This document shows, in pieces, positions 1-8,087 of a stretch of DNA of 64,000 nt. Below the pieces are notes generated by a model. It did not search any database. It had not been told where the DNA came from and saw only the letters and a list, made by a program, of their open reading frames with translations. The stretch covers positions 1-64,000 of the IMG/VR virus record IMGVR_UViG_3300032293_000766, one strand, 5' to 3'. This DNA is from a virus. A program made the translations under genes and the position numbers. Within the stretch, counting starts at the first letter, position 1. Each line of letters opens with the position of its first letter.

Positions 1-45
1 AAGTTTAGTTGTCAAGTGCCAAAAAAGATTTTTTTCGATTTTCTC

Positions 46-123
46 TAAACCCTTATCAAATAAAGACTTGCGACAAATGCGGCCCGCCGCCCTCGCCCTA
101 AGTCTTTTAGGGTCAAGGACTTA
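46..123. repeat. Paired-palindrome element copy 1 (25+28+25 bp)
   Basis: TAAACCCTTATCAAATAAAGACTTG (46-70), 28-bp GC-rich linker, TAAGTCTTTTAGGGTCAAGGACTTA (99-123); same geometry as three other copies. Confidence 0.9.
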
Positions 124-126
124 TGT

Positions 127-831
127 TTAGTGTGCGGGAAACAATACGTTAGCCAAGCCCTTTACACACAAATCACACGTTACACTACCCTTAGTGGGGG
201 TGCATGTTACAACACCGCGACCGCGACGAATCTCTGGGCATGTTACAAATTTAGTACCATTTAGTACAACAAGCTTGGGCAGAGACTGTCTCCAAGCCTC
301 TGCCAGATTCTTACGCTTGGGACGCTTTTTAGCAATCTTCTGATCACTATCACACCACGCAAACAGTTTGAATCCCTTTGCGAGAGCTTCTCCCATGTCT
401 TCGTCATTGTGAATACTGGCATATACTTTCATATACTTATTAAGACTTACAAGCCTATCATCATAGATATGAGTATAAAACCACATGTCAGGCAGAGTTG
501 TACCATCGGCAATAATACTCTCACAAGCCCACGTTACATTTGCAACATAGTCTAGATCAAGTTCGCCATTGAGAAACCAATCACCACGCTCATGCCAGCG
601 GATAGACTTACTTTGACGAATGGCATCAAGAATCATAGCACGAATGCGATTCTTTTCAGTTATGATATTCTGCATACCGGCGGGGCGAACATTAGGATAC
701 ATTTTTTCGGTCTGCTCTGCATAACAGCCGTTACCCAAGAAATCACAATCGGGCGGGCATGTATCACCCACCGGACGCGACACTACCAAACAACCCTTAC
801 CCAACTTGTCATTACCGTTTGCAACTTTCAT
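127..831 (-). CDS. Cys-rich phage protein, Gp88-like (possible Fe-S/radical-SAM-like fold)
   Basis: 234 aa; TCPPDCDFLGNGCYA, IRWHERGDW, WFYTH, TCPE and CDLC motifs recall the phage Gp88 family; AGGAGAG RBS and promoter upstream. Confidence 0.6.
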   Translation of the reverse strand: MKVANGNDKLGKGCLVVSRPVGDTCPPDCDFLGNGCYAEQTEKMYPNVRPAGMQNIITEKNRIRAMILDAIRQSKSIRWHERGDWFLNGELDLDYVANVTWACESIIADGTTLPDMWFYTHIYDDRLVSLNKYMKVYASIHNDEDMGEALAKGFKLFAWCDSDQKIAKKRPKRKNLAEAWRQSLPKLVVLNGTKFVTCPEIRRGRGVVTCTPTKGSVTCDLCVKGLANVLFPAH

Positions 832-854
832 GATTCTCTCCTTTGGATACGCTT

Positions 855-882
855 ATTATACAGTATATATCGGCATCGTCAA
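855..882 (-). promoter_or_regulatory. sigma70-type promoter
   Basis: Minus strand TTGACG-N16-TATAAT with A-tracts upstream. Confidence 0.75.
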
Positions 883-913
883 GAGGAAAAATCAAGGAAA
901 AATAAAATTGTCA

Positions 914-991
914 TAAACCATTGTGGCATAAACACTTACGGCGAATTCGCCTCGCCCGCCTTGCCCTAAGTCTTTTAGGCACAAGGCTTTA
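914..991. repeat. Paired-palindrome element copy 2
   Basis: TAAACCATTGTGGCATAAACACTTA (914-938), 28-bp linker, TAAGTCTTTTAGGCACAAGGCTTTA (967-991). Confidence 0.9.
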
Positions 992-993
992 CG

Positions 994-1152
994 TCAAGCA
1001 AAGGTTGTTTCCATCTCTATATCCCCCAAAATGCCTACAACGTCAGCCCAATCGTAAAAGTCAGACTGAACATTTGGATCGTCAATAGGCTCAACCATAC
1101 GCTCATCACGCATTTCGGCAAGAATGGCATTGACATCATCAAAGTTGTACAT
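994..1152 (-). CDS. Small acidic hypothetical protein (52 aa, not in ORF track)
   Basis: Manual translation MYNFDDVNAILAEMRDERMVEPIDDPNVQSDFYDWADVVGILGDIEMETTFA*; AAGGTG RBS; stop 2 bp from the palindrome element. Confidence 0.65.
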   Translation of the reverse strand: MYNFDDVNAILAEMRDERMVEPIDDPNVQSDFYDWADVVGILGDIEMETTFA

Positions 1153-1164
1153 CTGTTCACCTTA

Positions 1165-1365
1165 TTAGGATTTGAGTTCTTCATATGACACGCGACGATT
1201 GACACTTCCATCTTCATTCAATTCATATACTGAACAATCGTACTCATAAAGAAAACGATTCTGGATATCCTTCAGCCAAGACGCTTTTGCTTGCTCAAAA
1301 GTCTGCATAGCTTCACGCCTGAGAAATCCATCATAAGCGATAACAAATCTTTTGTCCATTGTCAT
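1165..1365 (-). CDS. Hypothetical protein (~66 aa, MTMDKRFVIAY...)
   Basis: ORF track 1165..1404; start moved to the ATG at 1365, which lies downstream of the promoter at 1395-1422 and follows a purine-rich leader. Confidence 0.65.
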   Translation of the reverse strand: MTMDKRFVIAYDGFLRREAMQTFEQAKASWLKDIQNRFLYEYDCSVYELNEDGSVNRRVSYEELKS

Positions 1366-1378
1366 TCTTTCTTTCTTA

Positions 1379-1558
1379 TTAAGCCCTACGGGATAGTGTA
1401 GCATGGGAAACTATCTTGTCAAGCGTATACCATTCACCATCACCATAACGACCAGAGAGCAGAATCTTGATATTCTTGCCAATGATCTGCTGAACAGTAC
1501 CATAACCGTCAACAACTTGAACAACATCGCCAACCATAATCTTTTGCATCTTTTTCAT
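1379..1558 (-). CDS. Small hypothetical protein, possible SH3/KOW-like beta barrel (59 aa, not in ORF track)
   Basis: Manual translation MKKMQKIMVGDVVQVVDGYGTVQQIIGKNIKILLSGRYGDGEWYTLDKIVSHATLSRRA*; own promoter at 1580-1607. Confidence 0.6.
   Translation of the reverse strand: MKKMQKIMVGDVVQVVDGYGTVQQIIGKNIKILLSGRYGDGEWYTLDKIVSHATLSRRA
1395..1422 (-). promoter_or_regulatory. sigma70-type promoter
   Basis: TTGACA-N16-TACACT with TG extension. Confidence 0.6.
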
Positions 1559-1579
1559 CTTTCGCTTTCTTGTGCTTGT

Positions 1580-1607
1580 ATTATATCGATTAGCAGATTG
1601 CTGTCAA
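1580..1607 (-). promoter_or_regulatory. sigma70-type promoter
   Basis: Perfect TTGACA-N16-TATAAT. Confidence 0.8.
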
Positions 1608-1612
1608 CCCCC

Positions 1613-1837
1613 TCATGCGAGGGTGGGATTGGAGCGATAATACTTTGCCCACAATTCATCCATCACGAACTGGACAATGCGATCATGCGAACCACGACAA
1701 ACGTAGTAGCCCATATGAATGTCGAACAGGGCAAACGTCCCATCCTCTTTTGGGTGATAGGTGAATCCACACTTGTAGGCATAGGCGTTGATTTTACCCT
1801 TGACAGTTGCAATCTTAGGAGGCTTTCTCATTTTCAT
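1613..1837 (-). CDS. Hypothetical protein (74 aa)
   Basis: ORF track; AAGGAA RBS; promoter directly upstream. Confidence 0.7.
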   Translation of the reverse strand: MKMRKPPKIATVKGKINAYAYKCGFTYHPKEDGTFALFDIHMGYYVCRGSHDRIVQFVMDELWAKYYRSNPTLA

Positions 1838-1865
1838 TTCCTTTTCTCTTACTTGTTATATCGAC

Positions 1866-1893
1866 ATTATACAGAGTATTCTTGAACTTGCAA
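1866..1893 (-). promoter_or_regulatory. sigma70-type promoter
   Basis: TTGCAA-N16-TATAAT followed by GTCGATATAA, matching the promoter at 2979-3006. Confidence 0.7.
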
Positions 1894-1937
1894 GCGAAAA
1901 GTTTCCTTACAATTCCGTAAGGTTCGCATAGAGAGTT

Positions 1938-1953
1938 TGGCACGATATTTGCT
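1938..1953 (+). promoter_or_regulatory. sigma54 (-24/-12) consensus site
   Basis: TGGCACG-ATAT-TTGCT matches TGGCACG-N4-TTGCW exactly. Confidence 0.65.
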
Positions 1954-1979
1954 AGTGTGTAGAATATGAGCATTGAACG

Positions 1980-2057
1980 TAAGTCATTGGTACATAAACA
2001 CTTACATCAAACGCGGCAGGCCACTTTCGTCATAAGTCTTTATGTGGCAAGACTTTA
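1980..2057. repeat. Paired-palindrome element copy 3
   Basis: TAAGTCATTGGTACATAAACACTTA (1980-2004), 28-bp linker, TAAGTCTTTATGTGGCAAGACTTTA (2033-2057). Confidence 0.9.
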
Positions 2058-2078
2058 CGACGATTGTGTGCATTGTAT

Positions 2079-2150
2079 TCAATCTCTGACAATTGTACAG
2101 GTGTACAACATTCCACACCAGCAAACTGCAAATAGTAATGCGCCTATCAT
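2079..2150 (-). CDS. Putative 23-aa hydrophobic micropeptide
   Basis: MIGALLFAVCWCGMLYTCTIVRD*; AAGGAG RBS overlapping the end of the upstream gene. Confidence 0.4.
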   Translation of the reverse strand: MIGALLFAVCWCGMLYTCTIVRD

Positions 2151-2155
2151 TGTTA

Positions 2156-2476
2156 TTACTCCTTAAATGAAAAGGGGCTAATTTCTATACGCTGTACAAC
2201 ACTATACTGCTTGGCTAATTCTTCAACACGTTCACGCGATCCCGGCTTACCTACTGGAACGATCATAGTATCGTCACCACCAGAGTATCGCGGGTCAATC
2301 TTTTCTTTTGTTACCTTACCAAGATTCTTCAAGGCTTTACGATTGAACTTGAGTACCTTTTCCACTTGAATCATCTCACCATCAATACTCTTTACCTCTG
2401 TTGGGATTGCCATTCCAAGGAAACACATACGTGCTTGACGCTTGGCATTTTCGATGATGGGGAATTTGGTAGCCAT
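2156..2476 (-). CDS. Hypothetical protein (106 aa)
   Basis: ORF track; GAGGA RBS; promoter at 2517-2545. Confidence 0.75.
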   Translation of the reverse strand: MATKFPIIENAKRQARMCFLGMAIPTEVKSIDGEMIQVEKVLKFNRKALKNLGKVTKEKIDPRYSGGDDTMIVPVGKPGSRERVEELAKQYSVVQRIEISPFSFKE

Positions 2477-2516
2477 TGTTTTCTATCCTCTTGGGTTATC
2501 GTTCTCTTGTGCGTGT

Positions 2517-2545
2517 ATTCTATCAAACTTCTTTTGCTGTGTCAA
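2517..2545 (-). promoter_or_regulatory. sigma70-type promoter
   Basis: TTGACA-N17-TAGAAT with TG extension. Confidence 0.75.
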
Positions 2546-2662
2546 TCACATTTCATCGAACATATCTTGAACAGCGTTACCCACTTCGTGAGCAGTGTAG
2601 GACATGAAACCAGCAAACGTAATAAGGGCAAACAGTTGGGCGTATTCGATAACCGTAATCAT
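2546..2662 (-). CDS. 38-aa membrane microprotein resembling a mature Flp pilin (not in ORF track)
   Basis: MITVIEYAQLFALITFAGFMSYTAHEVGNAVQDMFDEM*; own promoter at 2688-2715. Confidence 0.55.
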   Translation of the reverse strand: MITVIEYAQLFALITFAGFMSYTAHEVGNAVQDMFDEM

Positions 2663-2687
2663 TAGAGTCTCTCTTTCTTGTGTGTTT

Positions 2688-2715
2688 ATTCTAGCAAATT
2701 TTTTCTTCGTGTCAA
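2688..2715 (-). promoter_or_regulatory. sigma70-type promoter
   Basis: TTGACA-N16-TAGAAT with TG extension. Confidence 0.75.
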
Positions 2716-2724
2716 CCCCCTCTA

Positions 2725-2943
2725 TTAGAGGGTCATCAATCCCTTGAAGTGTGAGAAGGTCAGCGTAAGCTTTTGACCAGCGTACTTATGATCGATATAC
2801 GCTTGTGCAGAGCTTTTCCGATTATCGGTAGCCCCGACATACTGTACAACCGTACCATGCTGATCGATTACCTTCCAGACTTTCTTCTGTGTAATCTTGG
2901 GGAGGCTGTTGATGAAACTGTTGACTGAGGTTGCTTTTTCCAT
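2725..2943 (-). CDS. Hypothetical protein (72 aa)
   Basis: ORF track; purine-rich leader; promoter upstream. Confidence 0.7.
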   Translation of the reverse strand: MEKATSVNSFINSLPKITQKKVWKVIDQHGTVVQYVGATDNRKSSAQAYIDHKYAGQKLTLTFSHFKGLMTL

Positions 2944-2978
2944 TTTCTCTTCTCTTCTTTCTTACTTCTTATATCGAC

Positions 2979-3006
2979 ATTATAGCAAACATTCTTTAGC
3001 TTGCAA
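2979..3006 (-). promoter_or_regulatory. sigma70-type promoter
   Basis: TTGCAA-N16-TATAAT with TG extension, followed by GTCGATATAA. Confidence 0.7.
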
Positions 3007-3071
3007 GAGAAAAATCCAAATAATATTGTCAAGAGATTTTGACAAAACTTTCTTTCTCTTTTCCCTATACT

Positions 3072-3105
3072 TGGCACACCGTTTGCTATAGCAAGACCTA
3101 TGCCA
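3072..3105. promoter_or_regulatory. Two face-to-face sigma54 consensus sites
   Basis: Plus strand TGGCACA-CCGT-TTGCT (3072-3087); minus strand TGGCATA-GGTC-TTGCT (3105-3090). Confidence 0.6.
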
Positions 3106-3118
3106 GACCCTTTTTACG

Positions 3119-3196
3119 TAAATCATTGATATATAAAGACTTACATCAAGTTCGGCACTGACCGTAGCACCTAACTCCTTATGTACTAACGACTTA
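3119..3196. repeat. Paired-palindrome element copy 4
   Basis: TAAATCATTGATATATAAAGACTTA (3119-3143), 28-bp linker, TAACTCCTTATGTACTAACGACTTA (3172-3196). Confidence 0.9.
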
Positions 3197-3363
3197 TGAC
3201 TCGTATGTTAAGATAGGTAGGTGGGGGGTTTTATCTTCAATAGATAAATTGGGCTGACCATGCCTTTGGGCCGGGGTAGTTCATTCACGATTCAAAATTA
3301 TTAATTTTATGTATTACCCAATCCTCCCTCATCGCCCCCAAGCGCAACAAAAGACACTAAACA

Positions 3364-3373
3364 GTGTATAATA
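3364..3373 (+). promoter_or_regulatory. Putative phage late promoter motif GTGTATAATA
   Basis: GTGTAT(A/T) recurs before eight rightward gene blocks. Confidence 0.55.
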
Positions 3374-3390
3374 CGGTAAGGAGAAATAAT

Positions 3391-3564
3391 ATGAATGAAC
3401 CCAAATTAGTTGAATCGCAATTACACTGTCGCGCCAATGCAAGTCTAAACACTTCTATTATTGAAGATTTAGAGAAAGAGGATCGCCCACTAGAATCTTT
3501 ATTACTGGATGAAGGGAAAAAGGATGAATCGTCAACAACTTCCACTAAACAATTGCCTAGCTAA
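3391..3564 (+). CDS. Small acidic hypothetical protein (~57 aa)
   Basis: AAGGAG RBS 7 bp before the ATG at 3391. Confidence 0.55.
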   Translation: MNEPKLVESQLHCRANASLNTSIIEDLEKEDRPLESLLLDEGKKDESSTTSTKQLPS

Positions 3565-4147
3565 ATACGTAATTAACTCTAGCAACCTACTTGAATTAAC
3601 AAATGAGCAACTAGACCCCAATGTAGCAAAGACTCTTGAACTAATCGATTATGAGTCCTACTATATATATTCATTAGTTAAGCTAACGCCCCCCAACGCC
3701 ATCTCTATAGGTGAGCGCGGTATAGGTAAGTTTAAGAAAATACTAGACAAGACATACCTAGTACGTTTACGCCCCATCACACTATTCTACAACGGTGAAC
3801 TCAAGCAGGCTAACGTATATACCAAACCCACTAATATGGTATGCGTAGACAAGGAAGTTATCTCCCTATCCGTAGATCCGCCCCTCTCACTTGATGAGTT
3901 CTTCGCATTTCCATATAGTGTTGTTTATTCTAATGAGTCTGGCCTAGTTGACGCCGTTACTTTAGATGATAATTGTGTCTTAGGAAGAATTGGTTCAAGT
4001 GTAAAATCATTAAATATTAATGACTTATTCAAGGCTACTTCTTATGATTCCTGTAAAGATGCGCCAAAGACTAAGGGGCTTATTATATATGATAATGCCG
4101 ATGACTGTTTAAAATATTACAGCGGTAAAGGATGGCGTAAAATATGA
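3509..4147 (+). CDS. Hypothetical protein (C-terminus resembles fibre-protein motifs)
   Basis: 212 aa (alternative start 3524); ends GLIIYDNADDCLKYYSGKGW; ATGA overlap with next gene. Confidence 0.65.
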   Translation: MKGKRMNRQQLPLNNCLAKYVINSSNLLELTNEQLDPNVAKTLELIDYESYYIYSLVKLTPPNAISIGERGIGKFKKILDKTYLVRLRPITLFYNGELKQANVYTKPTNMVCVDKEVISLSVDPPLSLDEFFAFPYSVVYSNESGLVDAVTLDDNCVLGRIGSSVKSLNINDLFKATSYDSCKDAPKTKGLIIYDNADDCLKYYSGKGWRKI

Positions 4148-4632
4148 AAATACCGTCAAACATGACAGAAGAAGAACTGGTTGCACAAATCAATAAAGTA
4201 ATAGATAGAATATCCCCCAAGTATACATTTTACGGTTATGACATAAACGATATTAAGCAAGAGTCTTTTATTATTTGCTTAGATGCACTAGATCGCTACG
4301 ATGAAACGCGCCCCCTTGAAAACTTCTTATCTGTCCACCTGTCAAATAGATTAAAAAACTTTGTACGCGACAACTACTCTTTTAGTAATAATTATGAAAA
4401 AAGAAGAGTCTGTTCCCCTATGCAATTATCTTATGAAGAAAATGTAGAAAATAACGAAACTACTCACAGCGTTGATTTTAAAGATATGGATGAATTAATC
4501 TCTGATCGCTTGCCAGCGCGCTATCGCTCAGATTACCTTAAGTTTATTAACAACGTTGCTATGACCAAGGCTAAAAGGGAAAAAATAGTCGCTCTAATAA
4601 AGGAAATAATGGAGGATATAAATAATGCGTAA
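4144..4632 (+). CDS. Phage sigma70-family (region 2) factor, candidate late sigma
   Basis: DIKQESFIICLDALDRYDETRPLENFLSVHLSNRLKNFVR matches the sigma region 2 pattern (D..QE.......a..rfD......f.ty.....N...d..R). Confidence 0.7.
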   Translation: MKIPSNMTEEELVAQINKVIDRISPKYTFYGYDINDIKQESFIICLDALDRYDETRPLENFLSVHLSNRLKNFVRDNYSFSNNYEKRRVCSPMQLSYEENVENNETTHSVDFKDMDELISDRLPARYRSDYLKFINNVAMTKAKREKIVALIKEIMEDINNA

Positions 4633-5410
4633 GGGGCGTATTTCTAAAGAAGAAGAGCGTATTATTTCGCGCCTAATTAATACTATGGTGCCAGAAGATA
4701 TAGCTAAAGAGCTAGATCGTGATGTGGAATCTATAGATCAGTTTATTAAGCGAAAATTTAGACACAATTTATCACCAGAAGAAGAGGCCACTTACTCACT
4801 AGAAGATCGCCCCTATTGGGGTGAATTAGCTTCACAATTTACTGAGGAAGAATTAGAGTTGTTTAAATACCACTGGGGTAGAATCATATCACAGTTTAAT
4901 GATGACGTTTTCCCAACAGAAGAGTTGCAAGTAATAGACGTTATAAAATTAGAGATATTAATGAATAGGTGCCTTAGAAGTAATAAGGATAATATAGTAC
5001 AGATAAACGTTTACGATAAAATGATTGCGACTGAACGCGAGCGCGAAAAAGATCAACAAGACATGGACTATATATTCAACCTAGAAAGACAGTCTGCTTC
5101 TCTACGAGCTTCTCAGGAAGCTCTAAATAAAGACTATCGTGAACTACAAACAAAGAAGGCCGCTATACTTCGTGAAATGAAGGGTACACGCGAACAGAGA
5201 ATAAAGCGATTGGAGGACTCTAAGCAAAGTTTTACTAGCTGGGTAGCTATGCTAATCGATAATCCAGACAAAATGAAACAATATGGAATTGAGATGGAGA
5301 AAATGCGCCTTGCTACAGAAAAGGAGAAGGAACGCCTTTCTTCTTATCATACCTACGCAGATAATACAGTAGATCAACCATTTCTTACACCGGATACAAT
5401 TAAGGACTAA
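4625..5410 (+). CDS. Coiled-coil protein with N-terminal HTH-like segment; possible terminase small subunit
   Basis: 261 aa; PEDIAKELDRDVESI HTH-like; long charged helices; upstream of terminase large subunit (function inferred from position only). Confidence 0.4.
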   Translation: MRKGRISKEEERIISRLINTMVPEDIAKELDRDVESIDQFIKRKFRHNLSPEEEATYSLEDRPYWGELASQFTEEELELFKYHWGRIISQFNDDVFPTEELQVIDVIKLEILMNRCLRSNKDNIVQINVYDKMIATEREREKDQQDMDYIFNLERQSASLRASQEALNKDYRELQTKKAAILREMKGTREQRIKRLEDSKQSFTSWVAMLIDNPDKMKQYGIEMEKMRLATEKEKERLSSYHTYADNTVDQPFLTPDTIKD

Positions 5411-5412
5411 TT

Positions 5413-6465
5413 ATGAAAAAGGCTATTATATTTGGAATCACTGGACAGGACGGCAGTCACCTAGCAGACCTATTATTAGAGAAAGATTATAGTGTCATTG
5501 GTGTAACTCGTCGCTGTAGTGTGGATAATACCCAAAGATTAAAACATCTGTCTGATTGTGATAGCTTCAATTTGATCGAAGGGGATATAACAGATGTAAG
5601 TAGTGTAATTAATATTTTTAAGAATAACGAAGATGTAGATGAGGTCTATAATCTAGCCGCACAATCGCATGTTGCAACCTCGTTTAGCCAACCAGCATTA
5701 ACATGGGACATAACCGGCAAAGGCTGCTTAAATGTACTCCAAGCTATTGTGGATACAGGTAATAATTGCAAATTTTACCAAGCCTCATCTAGTGAAATGT
5801 TTGGTAGTTCATTTGATCTAGATAAAGATGGAAGTAAATATCAAGACGAAAATACTAAATTTATGCCCAACTCACCATACGCTATATCAAAATGCGCGGC
5901 ACATTATTTAGTTAGATTGTATCGTGATGCTTACAATGTGCATGGTAGCTGTGGAATATTATTCAATCACGAAGGCCCGCGAAGAGGCGATAATTTCGTA
6001 ACCCAAAAAATAGTCAAATGGACTGTGAGTTTTAAGAAATGGCTAAATTCTATTAATCATTCATCAAATAATGTGTTTGTTAATAACCATAATATTATTG
6101 TCGGTGACAGCGTATTTCCAAAATTAAAGCTTGGAAATATAGATACATATAGAGATTGGGGATATGCTGGAGATTATGTTGAAGCTATGTGGCTTATGCT
6201 ACAGCAAGAAATACCAGACGATTATGTGATTTGCACTGGCAACTCACACACTGTTTGGGAATTTCTAGATCTTTGTTTTAAGTATACTAATTTAGATAGC
6301 ATTATAGATTGGAAAGATGCTATGTATATTGATCCGCAGTTAGTTAGACCCTCAGAAGTCCCATACTTACGCGGTGATTGTTCAAAAGCAAAAAGTGTTC
6401 TAGGTTGGAGTCCAAAGCATGATCTATACGGATTGGTGAAACTGATGATAGATGCAAAACTATAG
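5413..6465 (+). CDS. gmd: GDP-mannose 4,6-dehydratase
   Basis: GITGQDGS NAD-binding motif, YNLAAQSHV, YQASSSEMFG, SPYAISK (YxxxK), GILFNHE, RDWGYAGDYVEAMWLMLQQ. Confidence 0.95.
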   Translation: MKKAIIFGITGQDGSHLADLLLEKDYSVIGVTRRCSVDNTQRLKHLSDCDSFNLIEGDITDVSSVINIFKNNEDVDEVYNLAAQSHVATSFSQPALTWDITGKGCLNVLQAIVDTGNNCKFYQASSSEMFGSSFDLDKDGSKYQDENTKFMPNSPYAISKCAAHYLVRLYRDAYNVHGSCGILFNHEGPRRGDNFVTQKIVKWTVSFKKWLNSINHSSNNVFVNNHNIIVGDSVFPKLKLGNIDTYRDWGYAGDYVEAMWLMLQQEIPDDYVICTGNSHTVWEFLDLCFKYTNLDSIIDWKDAMYIDPQLVRPSEVPYLRGDCSKAKSVLGWSPKHDLYGLVKLMIDAKL

Positions 6466-6706
6466 ACTAACAATAGATCTTTCTGATGTATATCAAGAGC
6501 TAGTATCGTACTCTGTACATTTAATAGGATACACTATACCATTTTCTCTAGTTTTCATAGAAGCAGATAATTATGACGATGCGTGTTTTGTCGTAGTGGA
6601 TCGATTAATAAAGTACGTCTTAAAAAAAGATAAGTCCATAAAAAGTAGAATACTTTGTAGAAAAATCAAAAAATTTATTAGAATCACTAAAGTAGAAAAA
6701 CTATGA
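6452..6706 (+). CDS. Hypothetical protein (84 aa)
   Basis: Overlaps both neighbours in operon-like fashion. Confidence 0.6.
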   Translation: MQNYRLTIDLSDVYQELVSYSVHLIGYTIPFSLVFIEADNYDDACFVVVDRLIKYVLKKDKSIKSRILCRKIKKFIRITKVEKL

Positions 6707-6969
6707 GTAATAGAAAAATTTCAGAAGATGTCTATAAGCGTTTTACTCAGGATGTAAAAAAACGAGATAAAAGACAATGCCAAATGCCAGGATGTAAATC
6801 TAAAAGTAGGTTGCAAGTTCATCATATAAAAATGTGGTCTAGTGCAGCATCTCTAAGATATGATACTGATAATGGTATTACTTTATGTAAATCTTGCCAT
6901 GATAGCATCAAGAACAAAGAAAAACAATACGAAAAATTATTTAGAGAGATAGTAGATGGCAAACTATAA
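6703..6969 (+). CDS. HNH endonuclease (packaging-associated type)
   Basis: RDKRQCQMPGC...LQVHHI...NGITLCKSCH. Confidence 0.9.
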   Translation: MSNRKISEDVYKRFTQDVKKRDKRQCQMPGCKSKSRLQVHHIKMWSSAASLRYDTDNGITLCKSCHDSIKNKEKQYEKLFREIVDGKL

Positions 6970-7459
6970 AGTCGCACCACCTTTTACTGTAATTAAGGAC
7001 ACTAGAGAACAGGAGGGTTATTACTTTAGTAAATTCAACACATGCGCTGGCATGATTGATCAAAAACTAGATACTGGTGACTATACAATACAAGGCTTAG
7101 AAGATAAAGTTTGTATAGAGCGCAAAGGATGTGTGGAAGAATTAGCTATAAATTTGGGACAAAAAAAACATCAGTTCCTACAAGAGATTGACCGTATGCA
7201 ATCATTCCCACATAGATTTATAGTTTTAGAGTTTTCTTTGGAAGAATTAATAAAGTTTCCCGAAGATACCAGAATACCTATTAAAAATCAATCATCATTA
7301 AAAATTACTGGCAAATACATGCTTAAGTGCATAGTTGAATTTCAAATATACAATAACATCAATGTCTTATTCTGCGGAAATAAAAAGTCAGCATTCCTTG
7401 CTGTTAGTAGCATTTTTAAGCGAATTAATGAAATGTACACTATTGGAAGAAAGAAATAA
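6956..7459 (+). CDS. ERCC4/XPF-domain nuclease
   Basis: DTREQ...LDTGDY...IERKG...EL motif. Confidence 0.85.
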   Translation: MANYKVAPPFTVIKDTREQEGYYFSKFNTCAGMIDQKLDTGDYTIQGLEDKVCIERKGCVEELAINLGQKKHQFLQEIDRMQSFPHRFIVLEFSLEELIKFPEDTRIPIKNQSSLKITGKYMLKCIVEFQIYNNINVLFCGNKKSAFLAVSSIFKRINEMYTIGRKK

Positions 7460-7460
7460 T

Positions 7461-8087
7461 ATGGCAATTACACATGACAAATTGTTTGATTTACATAATT
7501 ATGGCTGCAATATAAAGACTAGAGAAATATTTTTGCATAATACTTATGCATCAGACGAGAACAGTAATCCCGGCGTTGAATATAAAATGGCTAATACGTT
7601 CATAAAAAATGTACGTGTTTTGGAACAAGATAACAACAATGAAATTTTCATACATATGCATAGTATAGGTGGAGAATGGTCTGACGGAATGGCTATATTC
7701 GATACTATTACTATGTGCAAATCCCATGTAACCATAATAGTTTATGGACAGGCAGAGTCTATGAGTAGTATCATTTTACAAGCTGCTGATAAACGACTTA
7801 TGACGCCAAATTCTTACTTTATGTCCCATTTTGGCTCTAGCGATGCTAATGGTCATTATTTAAATGTTCAAAACTGGGTTAAATATGAGAAAAACCTTTG
7901 TGACATCATGATGGATATTTATGCTAGCAGATGCGTAAAAGGTAAATATTTCAAAGATCAGAATTGGGATTTAACAAAAGTCAAAAACTTTCTTTATAGA
8001 AAGATGAAGAATGGCGATTGGTATATAAACGCTAATGATGCAGTAAACTATGGATTTGCTGATAAGGTTATTACATCATGGGAGTAA
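7461..8087 (+). CDS. clpP: ClpP-like serine protease
   Basis: HSIGGEWSDGMAIFDTI, AESMSSII (Ser), FMSH (His), DWYINANDAVNYGFADKV; likely start is the ATG at 7461. Confidence 0.8.
   Translation: MAITHDKLFDLHNYGCNIKTREIFLHNTYASDENSNPGVEYKMANTFIKNVRVLEQDNNNEIFIHMHSIGGEWSDGMAIFDTITMCKSHVTIIVYGQAESMSSIILQAADKRLMTPNSYFMSHFGSSDANGHYLNVQNWVKYEKNLCDIMMDIYASRCVKGKYFKDQNWDLTKVKNFLYRKMKNGDWYINANDAVNYGFADKVITSWE

Follow-up and report, generated by a model that had tools for sequence, protein, structure and literature searches.

A rigidly spaced double palindrome between early transcription units of an uncultured lake phage and its relatives, a candidate docking module for a DNA-bending protein

Introduction

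Repeated palindromic DNA between genes has been described in several settings. In T4-type phages, promoter early stem-loop (PeSL) elements are repeated intergenic motifs of ~100 bp found among small orphan early genes, each with a stop codon on one side and, on the other, an AT-rich stretch and a strong sigma-70-type promoter; the genes that they flank are gained and lost without a dedicated recombinase, as far as the available text of the two reports describes them (PMC2839356, PMC4122927). Repetitive extragenic palindromic (REP) sequences and bacterial interspersed mosaic elements (BIMEs) are multi-copy arrangements of inverse palindromic units and a conserved linker at transcription-unit ends, with architectural proteins as partners; in BIME-1 the linker holds an IHF site, and the accessible part of the report credits REPs with the binding of gyrase, IHF and Pol I and with a role as topological insulators (PMC3333891). 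In the first-expressed DNA of phage T5, the left terminal repeat carries conserved inverted repeats and a functional 'spacer', an injection stop signal that the available part of the preprint reads as a docking site for a host DNA-binding protein (bioRxiv 10.1101/866236). Here we analyse a double-palindrome element found in the first 64 kb (hereafter the window) of IMG/VR virus record IMGVR_UViG_3300032293_000766, a linear contig of 135,211 bp that is rated 85% complete and comes from an uncultured lake phage.

The element consists of two palindromes held at a fixed spacing around a GC core, and its copies bound the units of an array of early genes. We propose, at about an even chance of being right, that it is a rigid module of double-stranded DNA on which a dimeric IHF-like bending protein, probably a product of the host, docks, and that it marks each early transcription-unit boundary. 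The literature that we covered on PeSL and T4-type shuffling, sigma-54, IHF and intergenic repeats, the T5 injection stop signal and REP/BIME, with subscription journals outside that coverage, does not describe it. New here are the sigma-54-type motifs beside the elements, the multi-copy occurrence of the palindrome in some Planctomycetota within a unit resembling a miniature inverted-repeat transposable element (MITE), and its frequent placement just after tRNA genes in bacteria.

Results

A repeat finder returned, in the window, a family of 81-nt repeats with four copies, which start at 46, 914, 1980 and 3119 and show 60-75% identity to copy 1, and a matrix built from their eight half-sites scored the window elements at 21.7-27.6 bits. 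Both results bear out the four copies listed in a preliminary description of this DNA, together with the constant geometry that it had noticed, every copy being 25 + 28 + 25 bp (palindrome, linker, palindrome; Table 1). Elsewhere in the contig (132 kb) the matrix found single sites only, with a top score of 17.3; full elements are confined to the first 3.2 kb, a leftward gene block at the contig start.

Eighty related IMG/VR loci were recovered through their terminase (73-99% protein identity) and the matrix was refined on them. Half-sites of at least 10 bits number 135 in the 1.03 Mb of these relatives versus 7 in a reversed-sequence control; a centre offset of 53 bp occurs 48 times, and any other offset below 200 once or twice. 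The 48 distinct full elements come from 11 sources and are spaced at exactly 53 bp without exception (48/48), so that the element recurs in the related phages with its spacing conserved. Two contigs binned into metagenome-assembled genomes (MAGs) carry phage-type arrays, one with a 53-bp and one with a 42-bp spacing. The latter, about 4 helical turns, is a second rigid spacing class, seen in L140 (49-2787), a contig binned as Enterobacterales, as six pairs at exactly 42 bp. The invariant 53 bp and the related 42-bp family support the earlier suggestion that the geometry is under selection, as paired dimers sitting on one face of the helix would require. The array had also been expected to extend beyond the window, and in the relatives it is indeed longer: three of the longer contigs hold arrays of 12-16 kb with 7-9 full elements placed 0.7-3.6 kb apart. 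Two relatives of 132-136 kb end inside the array, like the source contig; the ~15% of the genome missing from the latter is thus probably more array, and the element would account for the assembly breaks in the early region of these phages.

When aligned, the 48 copies define a unit running from about -5 to +82, a composite of ~87 bp with the consensus tGtCG / TAAGTCnTTG-N6-TAAGGACTTA / CGtCaAA..GGC(C/G)(C/G)GCC..G.CC / TAAGTCCTT-N7-AAGGaCTTA / CGtC. The linker begins with CGtCaAA and holds the GC core GGC(C/G)(C/G)GCC at fixed positions 36-43, with C38 present in 47/48 copies; the linker had been called variable, which was wrong. Each palindrome is flanked by CG dinucleotides, giving a dyad site of the form (CG)TAAGTCnTT-N7-AAnGACTTA(CG). 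The four arms vary independently about one 9-bp consensus, the inner arms being nearest to it and the outer arms more degenerate, while TAA, TT, AA and TTA are invariant. The central 7 bp differ in all eight window half-sites and are unconserved across the 48 copies. Because the linker is asymmetric the element is polar, and its orientation is always that of the genes.

Symmetry of this kind may also serve a folded molecule, and a folded single-stranded DNA or RNA had been put forward for this element. In its most concrete form, which we consider unlikely, the element would be an RNA-level 3'-end signal like the T4-type PeSL stem-loop, its palindromes forming DNA cruciforms or folds of the leftward transcript, terminating or attenuating transcription, processing or stabilising the RNA, and offering homology for recombination. 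Two separate hairpins (A:A' and B:B') and the A:B pairing were modelled on both strands with shuffle controls, and no covariation above the shuffles was seen for any model on either strand: paired cells amounted to 79.7% vs 80.9% shuffled (+ strand) and 76.9% vs 77.5% (- strand) for the hairpins, and to 73.8% vs 73.4% and 69.9% vs 69.5% (+ and - strands) for A:B. RNAalifold returned 0 pairs on the mRNA-sense alignment, and a search of Rfam with window 1-8000 gave 0 matches at E<=1. Single copies do fold on the mRNA strand (z-scores -2.0 to -3.8), and PeSL stem-loops are reported to terminate transcription (PMC2839356, in the part of the text available), both in favour of an RNA signal. So is the sister lineage L014/L015, in which two C-run/G-run hairpins around the same GC core (GCGGCGGGCC) replace the AT-rich palindromes (L014:1095-1163, 1725-1782, 2490-2558). 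However, the four window copies take different shapes, many arms are non-complementary (column pair 12/24 of alignment A1 is a standard pair in 15/48 copies), and what is conserved across phages and bacteria is sequence, not structure. With no covariation and single copies that fold differently, the symmetry reflects a repeated word rather than a fold: the element holds one 9-11-bp word four times over, which is what dimers on duplex DNA would lead one to expect.

The position of the element is defined on both sides. On the right, the stop codon of the upstream gene lies -16 to +5 nt from the element edge in 22/46 elements; the window agrees with what had been reported for copies 1 and 2, the leftward stops 127-129 and 994-996 sitting 3 nt and 2 nt from their right edges. 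Such a position would suit an RNA-level 3'-end signal, as would the chance-level number of intrinsic terminators in the array (2 vs 2.6 expected in 1-3600), but none of these terminators, in the sense of a GC-rich hairpin and a U-tract, is at the palindromes, and no U-tract follows the element in either direction. On the left, a recognisable sigma-70-type promoter is present within 260 bp of 30/48 elements, outside the conserved unit. Its -35 box is 29-33 bp from the element in 10/30 cases; other distances group at 18-21, 41 and 53-57 bp, giving a weak ~11-bp periodicity. In the window, copies 1 and 2 each have a -35 box 30-31 bp to their left, close to the ~30 bp noted before. Among 17 lone halves, 11 are A-type, 7 of them at the head of an array, beside a conserved G-run hairpin, where no gene ends. 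Another four are of B type; the GC core stands in front of them, and they come after a gene or tRNA. Together with the stop codons and promoters, this split suggests that half B and the core belong to the 3' side of a unit and half A to the promoter side of the next.

Near-consensus sigma-70-type promoter-like sites number 17 on the minus strand of the early block versus 8.8 expected. An array with many consensus promoters in one direction is also what a topological insulator or strong gyrase-type site like BIME-2/REP would call for, the GC-rich centre and bendable symmetric arms relieving supercoiling between strong co-directional promoters. Two inverted palindromic units and a linker at unit 3' ends recall BIMEs, as do the protein binding and insulation reported for REPs in the part of PMC3333891 available. 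On the other hand, invariant sequence-specific arms are unexpected for gyrase and the GTAG-type REP signature is absent from the consensus, and we judge this possibility very improbable.

Sigma-54-type motifs also accompany the element. Array DNA (73.5 kb) contains 21 copies of the strict motif TGGCAY-N5-TTGCW versus 15 in 957 kb elsewhere (0.09 in shuffles), an ~18-fold higher density, and most of the 15 are in the same early block, in loci without a recognised element. In the mapped arrays the motifs stand directly left of an element with one exception; all those at 114-240 bp from it point leftward, as the genes do, and place the element at about -70 to -300, and for 39/84 looser matches an element begins 0-250 bp further right. 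All this would fit an enhancer (upstream activating sequence) for a host sigma-54 activator, with two enhancer-binding-protein dimers on the palindromes driving the adjacent -24/-12 promoters, and two phased dyads are a usual format of such enhancers. However, the sigma-54 activator domain PF00158 was not found in the phage records searched (G000-G004, fragments, 22-85% complete), more than half of the elements lack a motif, and 8/21 strict motifs point rightward into the element, several of them in face-to-face palindromic pairs (e.g. 3072-3105) that could be an operator instead. Moreover, just 3/121 bacterial copies among the matches listed have a -24/-12 motif within 300 bp, and we hold an enhancer of this type to be improbable. 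Clusters of the motifs, often as palindromic pairs, are seen in the early block of the window and of relatives L014, L018, L019, L056, L069 and L080. IHF sites are classically found upstream of sigma-54 promoters. Within the coverage given above, again without subscription journals, no paper came to light that describes phage genomes with sigma-54 promoters.

In the same records (G000-G004) no match was obtained for HU/IHF (PF00216), integrase (PF00589) or resolvase (PF00239), nor for the Y1 transposase (PF01797) in G000, G001 and G003. Proteins encoded left of the relatives' arrays were identified as subtilase, UvdE and cytidylyltransferase, with no DNA-binding regulator among them; the 10 kb left of the G001 array have no counterpart in G000, as compared with the far end of the source contig. 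These searches bear on an integron-, pdif- or other recombinase-type system, as had been raised for the array. Each half would then be a core site for a tyrosine recombinase, host-supplied or of an unfamiliar family, in an integron/attC-like or Xer/pdif-like cassette site. The 9-7-9 format (11-7-11 with the CG flanks) does resemble that of recombinase core sites, the elements abut stop codons and, in bacteria, tRNA 3' ends, the palindrome is part of a MITE-like unit in one bacterium (G007, below), and cassette content varies among relatives. Yet besides the lack of matches to recombinase families in these phage records, the 7-bp centres give no identical overlap for strand exchange, and the attC core motifs RYYYAAC and GTTRRRY are missing from the consensus.

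The dynamics of the cassettes point the same way. Gene order in the relatives' arrays is mostly collinear, the differences being genes and units that some arrays have and others lack. The preliminary description had asked whether gene content varies among relatives with breakpoints at the elements, of which the first part holds and the second only in part: some breakpoints fall at elements, others at promoters and gene ends and inside units. The source stretch is found in lake and freshwater metagenomes of 10 studies, and population variants were read from metagenome contigs of four runs. Contigs diverge at 65, 885, 956/958 (inside the GC core) and 996-998 (element edge), of which all except 885 count for recombination at the element. 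By contrast, two joints, 1899->3027 and 1925->2966, are deletions of ~1.1 kb between the two copies of a repeated promoter block (D2) and remove element copy 3. Since the half-site centres differ between copies, site-specific recombination fits less well, and the exchange more closely resembles PeSL-type homologous exchange, as the available text of PMC2839356 presents it; we think a dedicated recombination site improbable.

The same palindrome is present in bacteria. A scan for the perfect half-site in one genome per prokaryote species gave at least 120 stretches and 121 sites among the matches listed (loci L086-L205), to which the following fractions of sites refer. For 40 of the 121, a tRNA 3' end precedes the site by 1-40 nt (mostly 1-8 nt), ~14 of these 40 being tRNA-Asp loci of Spirochaetes that are probably orthologous, and a T-run follows in 34/121; both observations favour an RNA-level 3'-end signal. 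In certain genomes the palindrome is multi-copy, sites at <=2 mismatches numbering 129 vs 0 in the control for a Thermoguttaceae MAG (G007), 25 vs 2 for a Pirellulales MAG (G006) and 21 vs 1 for a Kapaibacterium MAG (G009), and the multi-copy sites show the arm variants of the phage. In G007 the palindrome adjoins the terminal inverted repeat of a MITE-like unit of ~170 bp, which has terminal inverted repeats of ~20 bp (CTAAGCTCGACTTTTGCCAT type) and two palindromes 57 bp apart (L226, L228, L235, L236, L238, L239); the G007 sites also directly abut tRNA 3' ends. In a sample of Planctomycetota, 27/121 genomes carry one or more matches at <=1 mismatch, a sporadic rather than phylum-wide distribution. 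This multi-copy occurrence in bacterial genomes favours a cellular binder and keeps a 3'-boundary function in play.

Chance was considered as the source of the bacterial matches: by a rough estimate random palindromic terminators might give some of them, but neither 129 vs 0 in one genome nor the 40/121 beside tRNA 3' ends. A link to REP-associated tyrosine transposases (RAYTs) was rejected, for G007 with its 129 copies has no PF01797; the family is present in G009. The 25-bp palindrome stands 1-8 nt after many different tRNA genes (L216, L217, L221; Spirochaetes, Planctomycetota and others), often with a T-run in Spirochaetes and with CG flanks in Planctomycetota.

The coordinates of the elements, genes and promoters of the window are collected in Table 1. 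Pfam and PHROGs recognise only two proteins near the array, GP88/DUF7227 (127-831) and a sigma-factor-like protein, and assign no family to the other leftward genes up to 2943. The rightward genes, from ~3364, include the sigma-factor-like protein, a GDP-mannose dehydratase-like gene and the large terminase, whose identity to the terminases of cultured phages does not exceed 29%; a protein atlas gave no match for the 212-aa protein 3509-4147, and a DNA search of GenBank phages matched the sugar-dehydratase gene alone. GC content is 40-42% in the early block (window 1-4000) vs 32-38% across most of the window.

Several features of the early block are distinct from the double palindrome. The promoter block D2 is a 77-nt repeat (1824-1900 and 2937-3013, 75% identical). 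Many early promoters (855-882 and others in relatives) have the same conserved word (G/C)CGATA in their spacer, together with an extended -10 (TGTAGAAT or TGTATAAT), which suggests a single promoter family copied around. C-run/G-run hairpins (1608-1627 and 2716-2732) lie directly upstream of the -35 boxes of the internal promoters 1580-1607 and 2688-2715, a PeSL-like combination of stem-loop and promoter. The G-run hairpin at the divergent junction is conserved beside the last, often A-only, element (L018, L043, L069, L071, L076, L079, G003). In some relatives a leftward gene for an S8 subtilase of 390-401 aa stands at the array head (L033:3848-5020, L018:3293-4498); it is absent from the window. 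The arrays of L083, L084 and L085 hold 7-9 leftward tRNA genes each, clusters of 5-8 included. The window has none, and the tRNA genes of the source phage are thus probably in its unassembled part.

Table 1. Elements, genes, promoters and other features at the left end of the window
Feature	Position	Strand	Details
Element copy 1	41..128	.	Halves A (46-70) and B (99-123) around linker with GC core (71-98); CG-type flanks
Element copy 2	909..996	.	Half A 914-938, half B 967-991; right edge 2 nt from stop codon of gene 994-1152
Element copy 3	1975..2062	.	Half A 1980-2004, half B 2033-2057
Element copy 4	3114..3201	.	Half A 3119-3143, half B 3172-3196; first of leftward array, adjoins divergent junction
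Leftward early genes	127-831 (GP88/DUF7227), 994-1152, 1165-1404, 1379-1558, 1613-1837, 2156-2476, 2546-2662, 2725-2943	-	Units bounded by elements
Sigma-70-type promoter of GP88/DUF7227 gene	855..882	-	TTGACG-16-TATAAT; -35 31 bp from copy 2
Internal consensus sigma-70-type promoter	1580..1607	-	12/12 matches; C-run/G-run hairpin directly upstream
Sigma-70-type promoter	1866..1893	-	TTGCAA-16-TATAAT; within promoter block D2
Sigma-70-type promoter	2979..3006	-	Within second copy of promoter block D2
Sigma-54-type -24/-12 motif	1938..1953	+	TGGCAC-N5-TTGCT; 26 bp left of copy 3
Two face-to-face sigma-54-type motifs	3072..3105 (3072-3087 +, 3090-3105 -)	.	34-bp palindrome, 13 bp left of copy 4
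Junction hairpin with G-run	3207..3237	.	AAGAT...GGGGGGTTTTATCTT; between leftward array and rightward operon

Discussion

A docking module for a dimeric bending protein may be pictured as follows. Two protein dimers would occupy the two dyad sites, whose centres are five helical turns apart on either side of the GC core, and the binder would be a sequence-specific DNA-bending protein of the IHF/HU type, probably supplied by the host. Half B and the core would close the upstream unit at its 3' end, and half A would lie upstream of the promoters of the next unit, which are of the sigma-70 type and often of the sigma-54 type too. The bound and bent module might then give the upstream promoter DNA its shape or activate it, and keep adjacent units insulated, the repeated element and promoter sequence providing, as a by-product, homology for the gain and loss of cassettes. 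The enhancer or operator role entertained in the preliminary description may hold and lies near this proposal. The IHF consensus is WATCAANNNNTTR; AANNNNTTR is present in 172/192 arms, CAANNNNTTR in 76/192 and the full WATCAANNNNTTR in 15/192, against 0.14 in shuffles.

Several observations weigh against the docking proposal: (i), the full IHF consensus is found in just those 15 arms, and the strongly conserved GTCC/GGAC inside the IHF 'N4' is no IHF feature. (ii), the phage records are fragmentary and may therefore hide a phage-encoded binder of an unfamiliar family. (iii), no sigma-70 promoter was recognised within 260 bp of 18/48 elements, and the ~11-bp periodicity comes from related, non-independent promoters, with p ~0.04 on unique distances. 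(iv), many elements have no sigma-54 motif, and L082 and L063 have none at all. (v), the post-tRNA position and the T-run of the bacterial sites (40/121 and 34/121 among the matches listed) are the position of a terminator hairpin. (vi), the hairpins of L014/L015 are in element position beside sigma-54-type motifs and look structural, not sequence-specific; they make the strongest case for structure, or for the GC core itself, being what matters.

It is tempting to speculate further, if doubtfully, that the element belongs to a widespread and undescribed class of protein-bound transcription-unit boundary modules, common to large aquatic phages and to bacterial chromosomes, where it would appear in MITE-like repeats and at post-tRNA sites. 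Bound by a symmetric IHF/HU-type protein or by a new factor, such modules would stop read-through and set up the next promoter, and in these phages they would work with the host sigma-54 RNA polymerase, through which part of the early programme would run. Recruitment of a host architectural protein to every early boundary, if it takes place, would explain how dozens of strong promoters are organised and insulated in large uncultured aquatic phages that lack ordinary terminators there. Such recruitment would also add a phage case of sigma-54-type promoters and provide a sequence handle for host prediction, since some bacterial lineages have the same word in many copies. Given the rigid 42-bp and 53-bp spacings, the binding model can be tested directly.

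How does the element compare with the systems already described? It shares with the PeSL elements of T4-type phages their form as repeated intergenic motifs of ~100 bp that follow a stop codon, their place among small orphan early genes and their part in indels without a dedicated recombinase, seen here as the presence and absence of cassettes and as joints at promoter repeats and element edges. As far as the available text of PMC2839356 and PMC4122927 goes, a PeSL is a terminating G-run/C-run hairpin, whereas the present element is a pair of sequence-conserved palindromes with a 53-bp spacing, a GC core, no covariation and no terminator signature; its promoter lies outside it at a variable distance, and sigma-54-type motifs stand beside some copies. 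Integron attC sites are likewise imperfect inverted repeats directly after the stop codon of each cassette. They differ in their R''/R' core motifs and folded bottom strand, of which neither the motifs nor covariation appears here, and in their integrase IntI, for which PF00589 gave 0 matches in the five fragmentary phage records; the cassettes of the array have their own promoters and often several genes. In Xer/dif (pdif) sites two arms of ~11 bp enclose a 6-8-bp centre that recombining partners have in common; the arm format fits, but the centres differ.

With REPs and BIMEs, and BIME-1 especially, the element has in common two inverted palindromic units, a linker, multiple copies and an extragenic location. 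To judge from the accessible part of PMC3333891, it departs from BIME-1 in that the IHF-like words are in the palindromes, the linker is GC-rich, no GTAG is present and the setting is a phage early region; nor was the cognate Y1 transposase found in G000, G001, G003 or G007. IHF sites upstream of phage early and sigma-54 promoters resemble it in the arm core CAA-N4-TTR, in lying tens of bp upstream and in their helical register, and are unlike it in that here the word is doubled symmetrically, carries the extra GTCC/GGAC and seldom reaches the full consensus, and the sites invariably form pairs with a GC core. The inverted repeats of T5 are likewise read as a host-protein docking site in the DNA expressed first; in the part of bioRxiv 10.1101/866236 available they form one or two units of 131 bp with DnaA boxes in a non-coding tract, whereas in the present phages a unit of 78-87 bp stands between every early gene unit.

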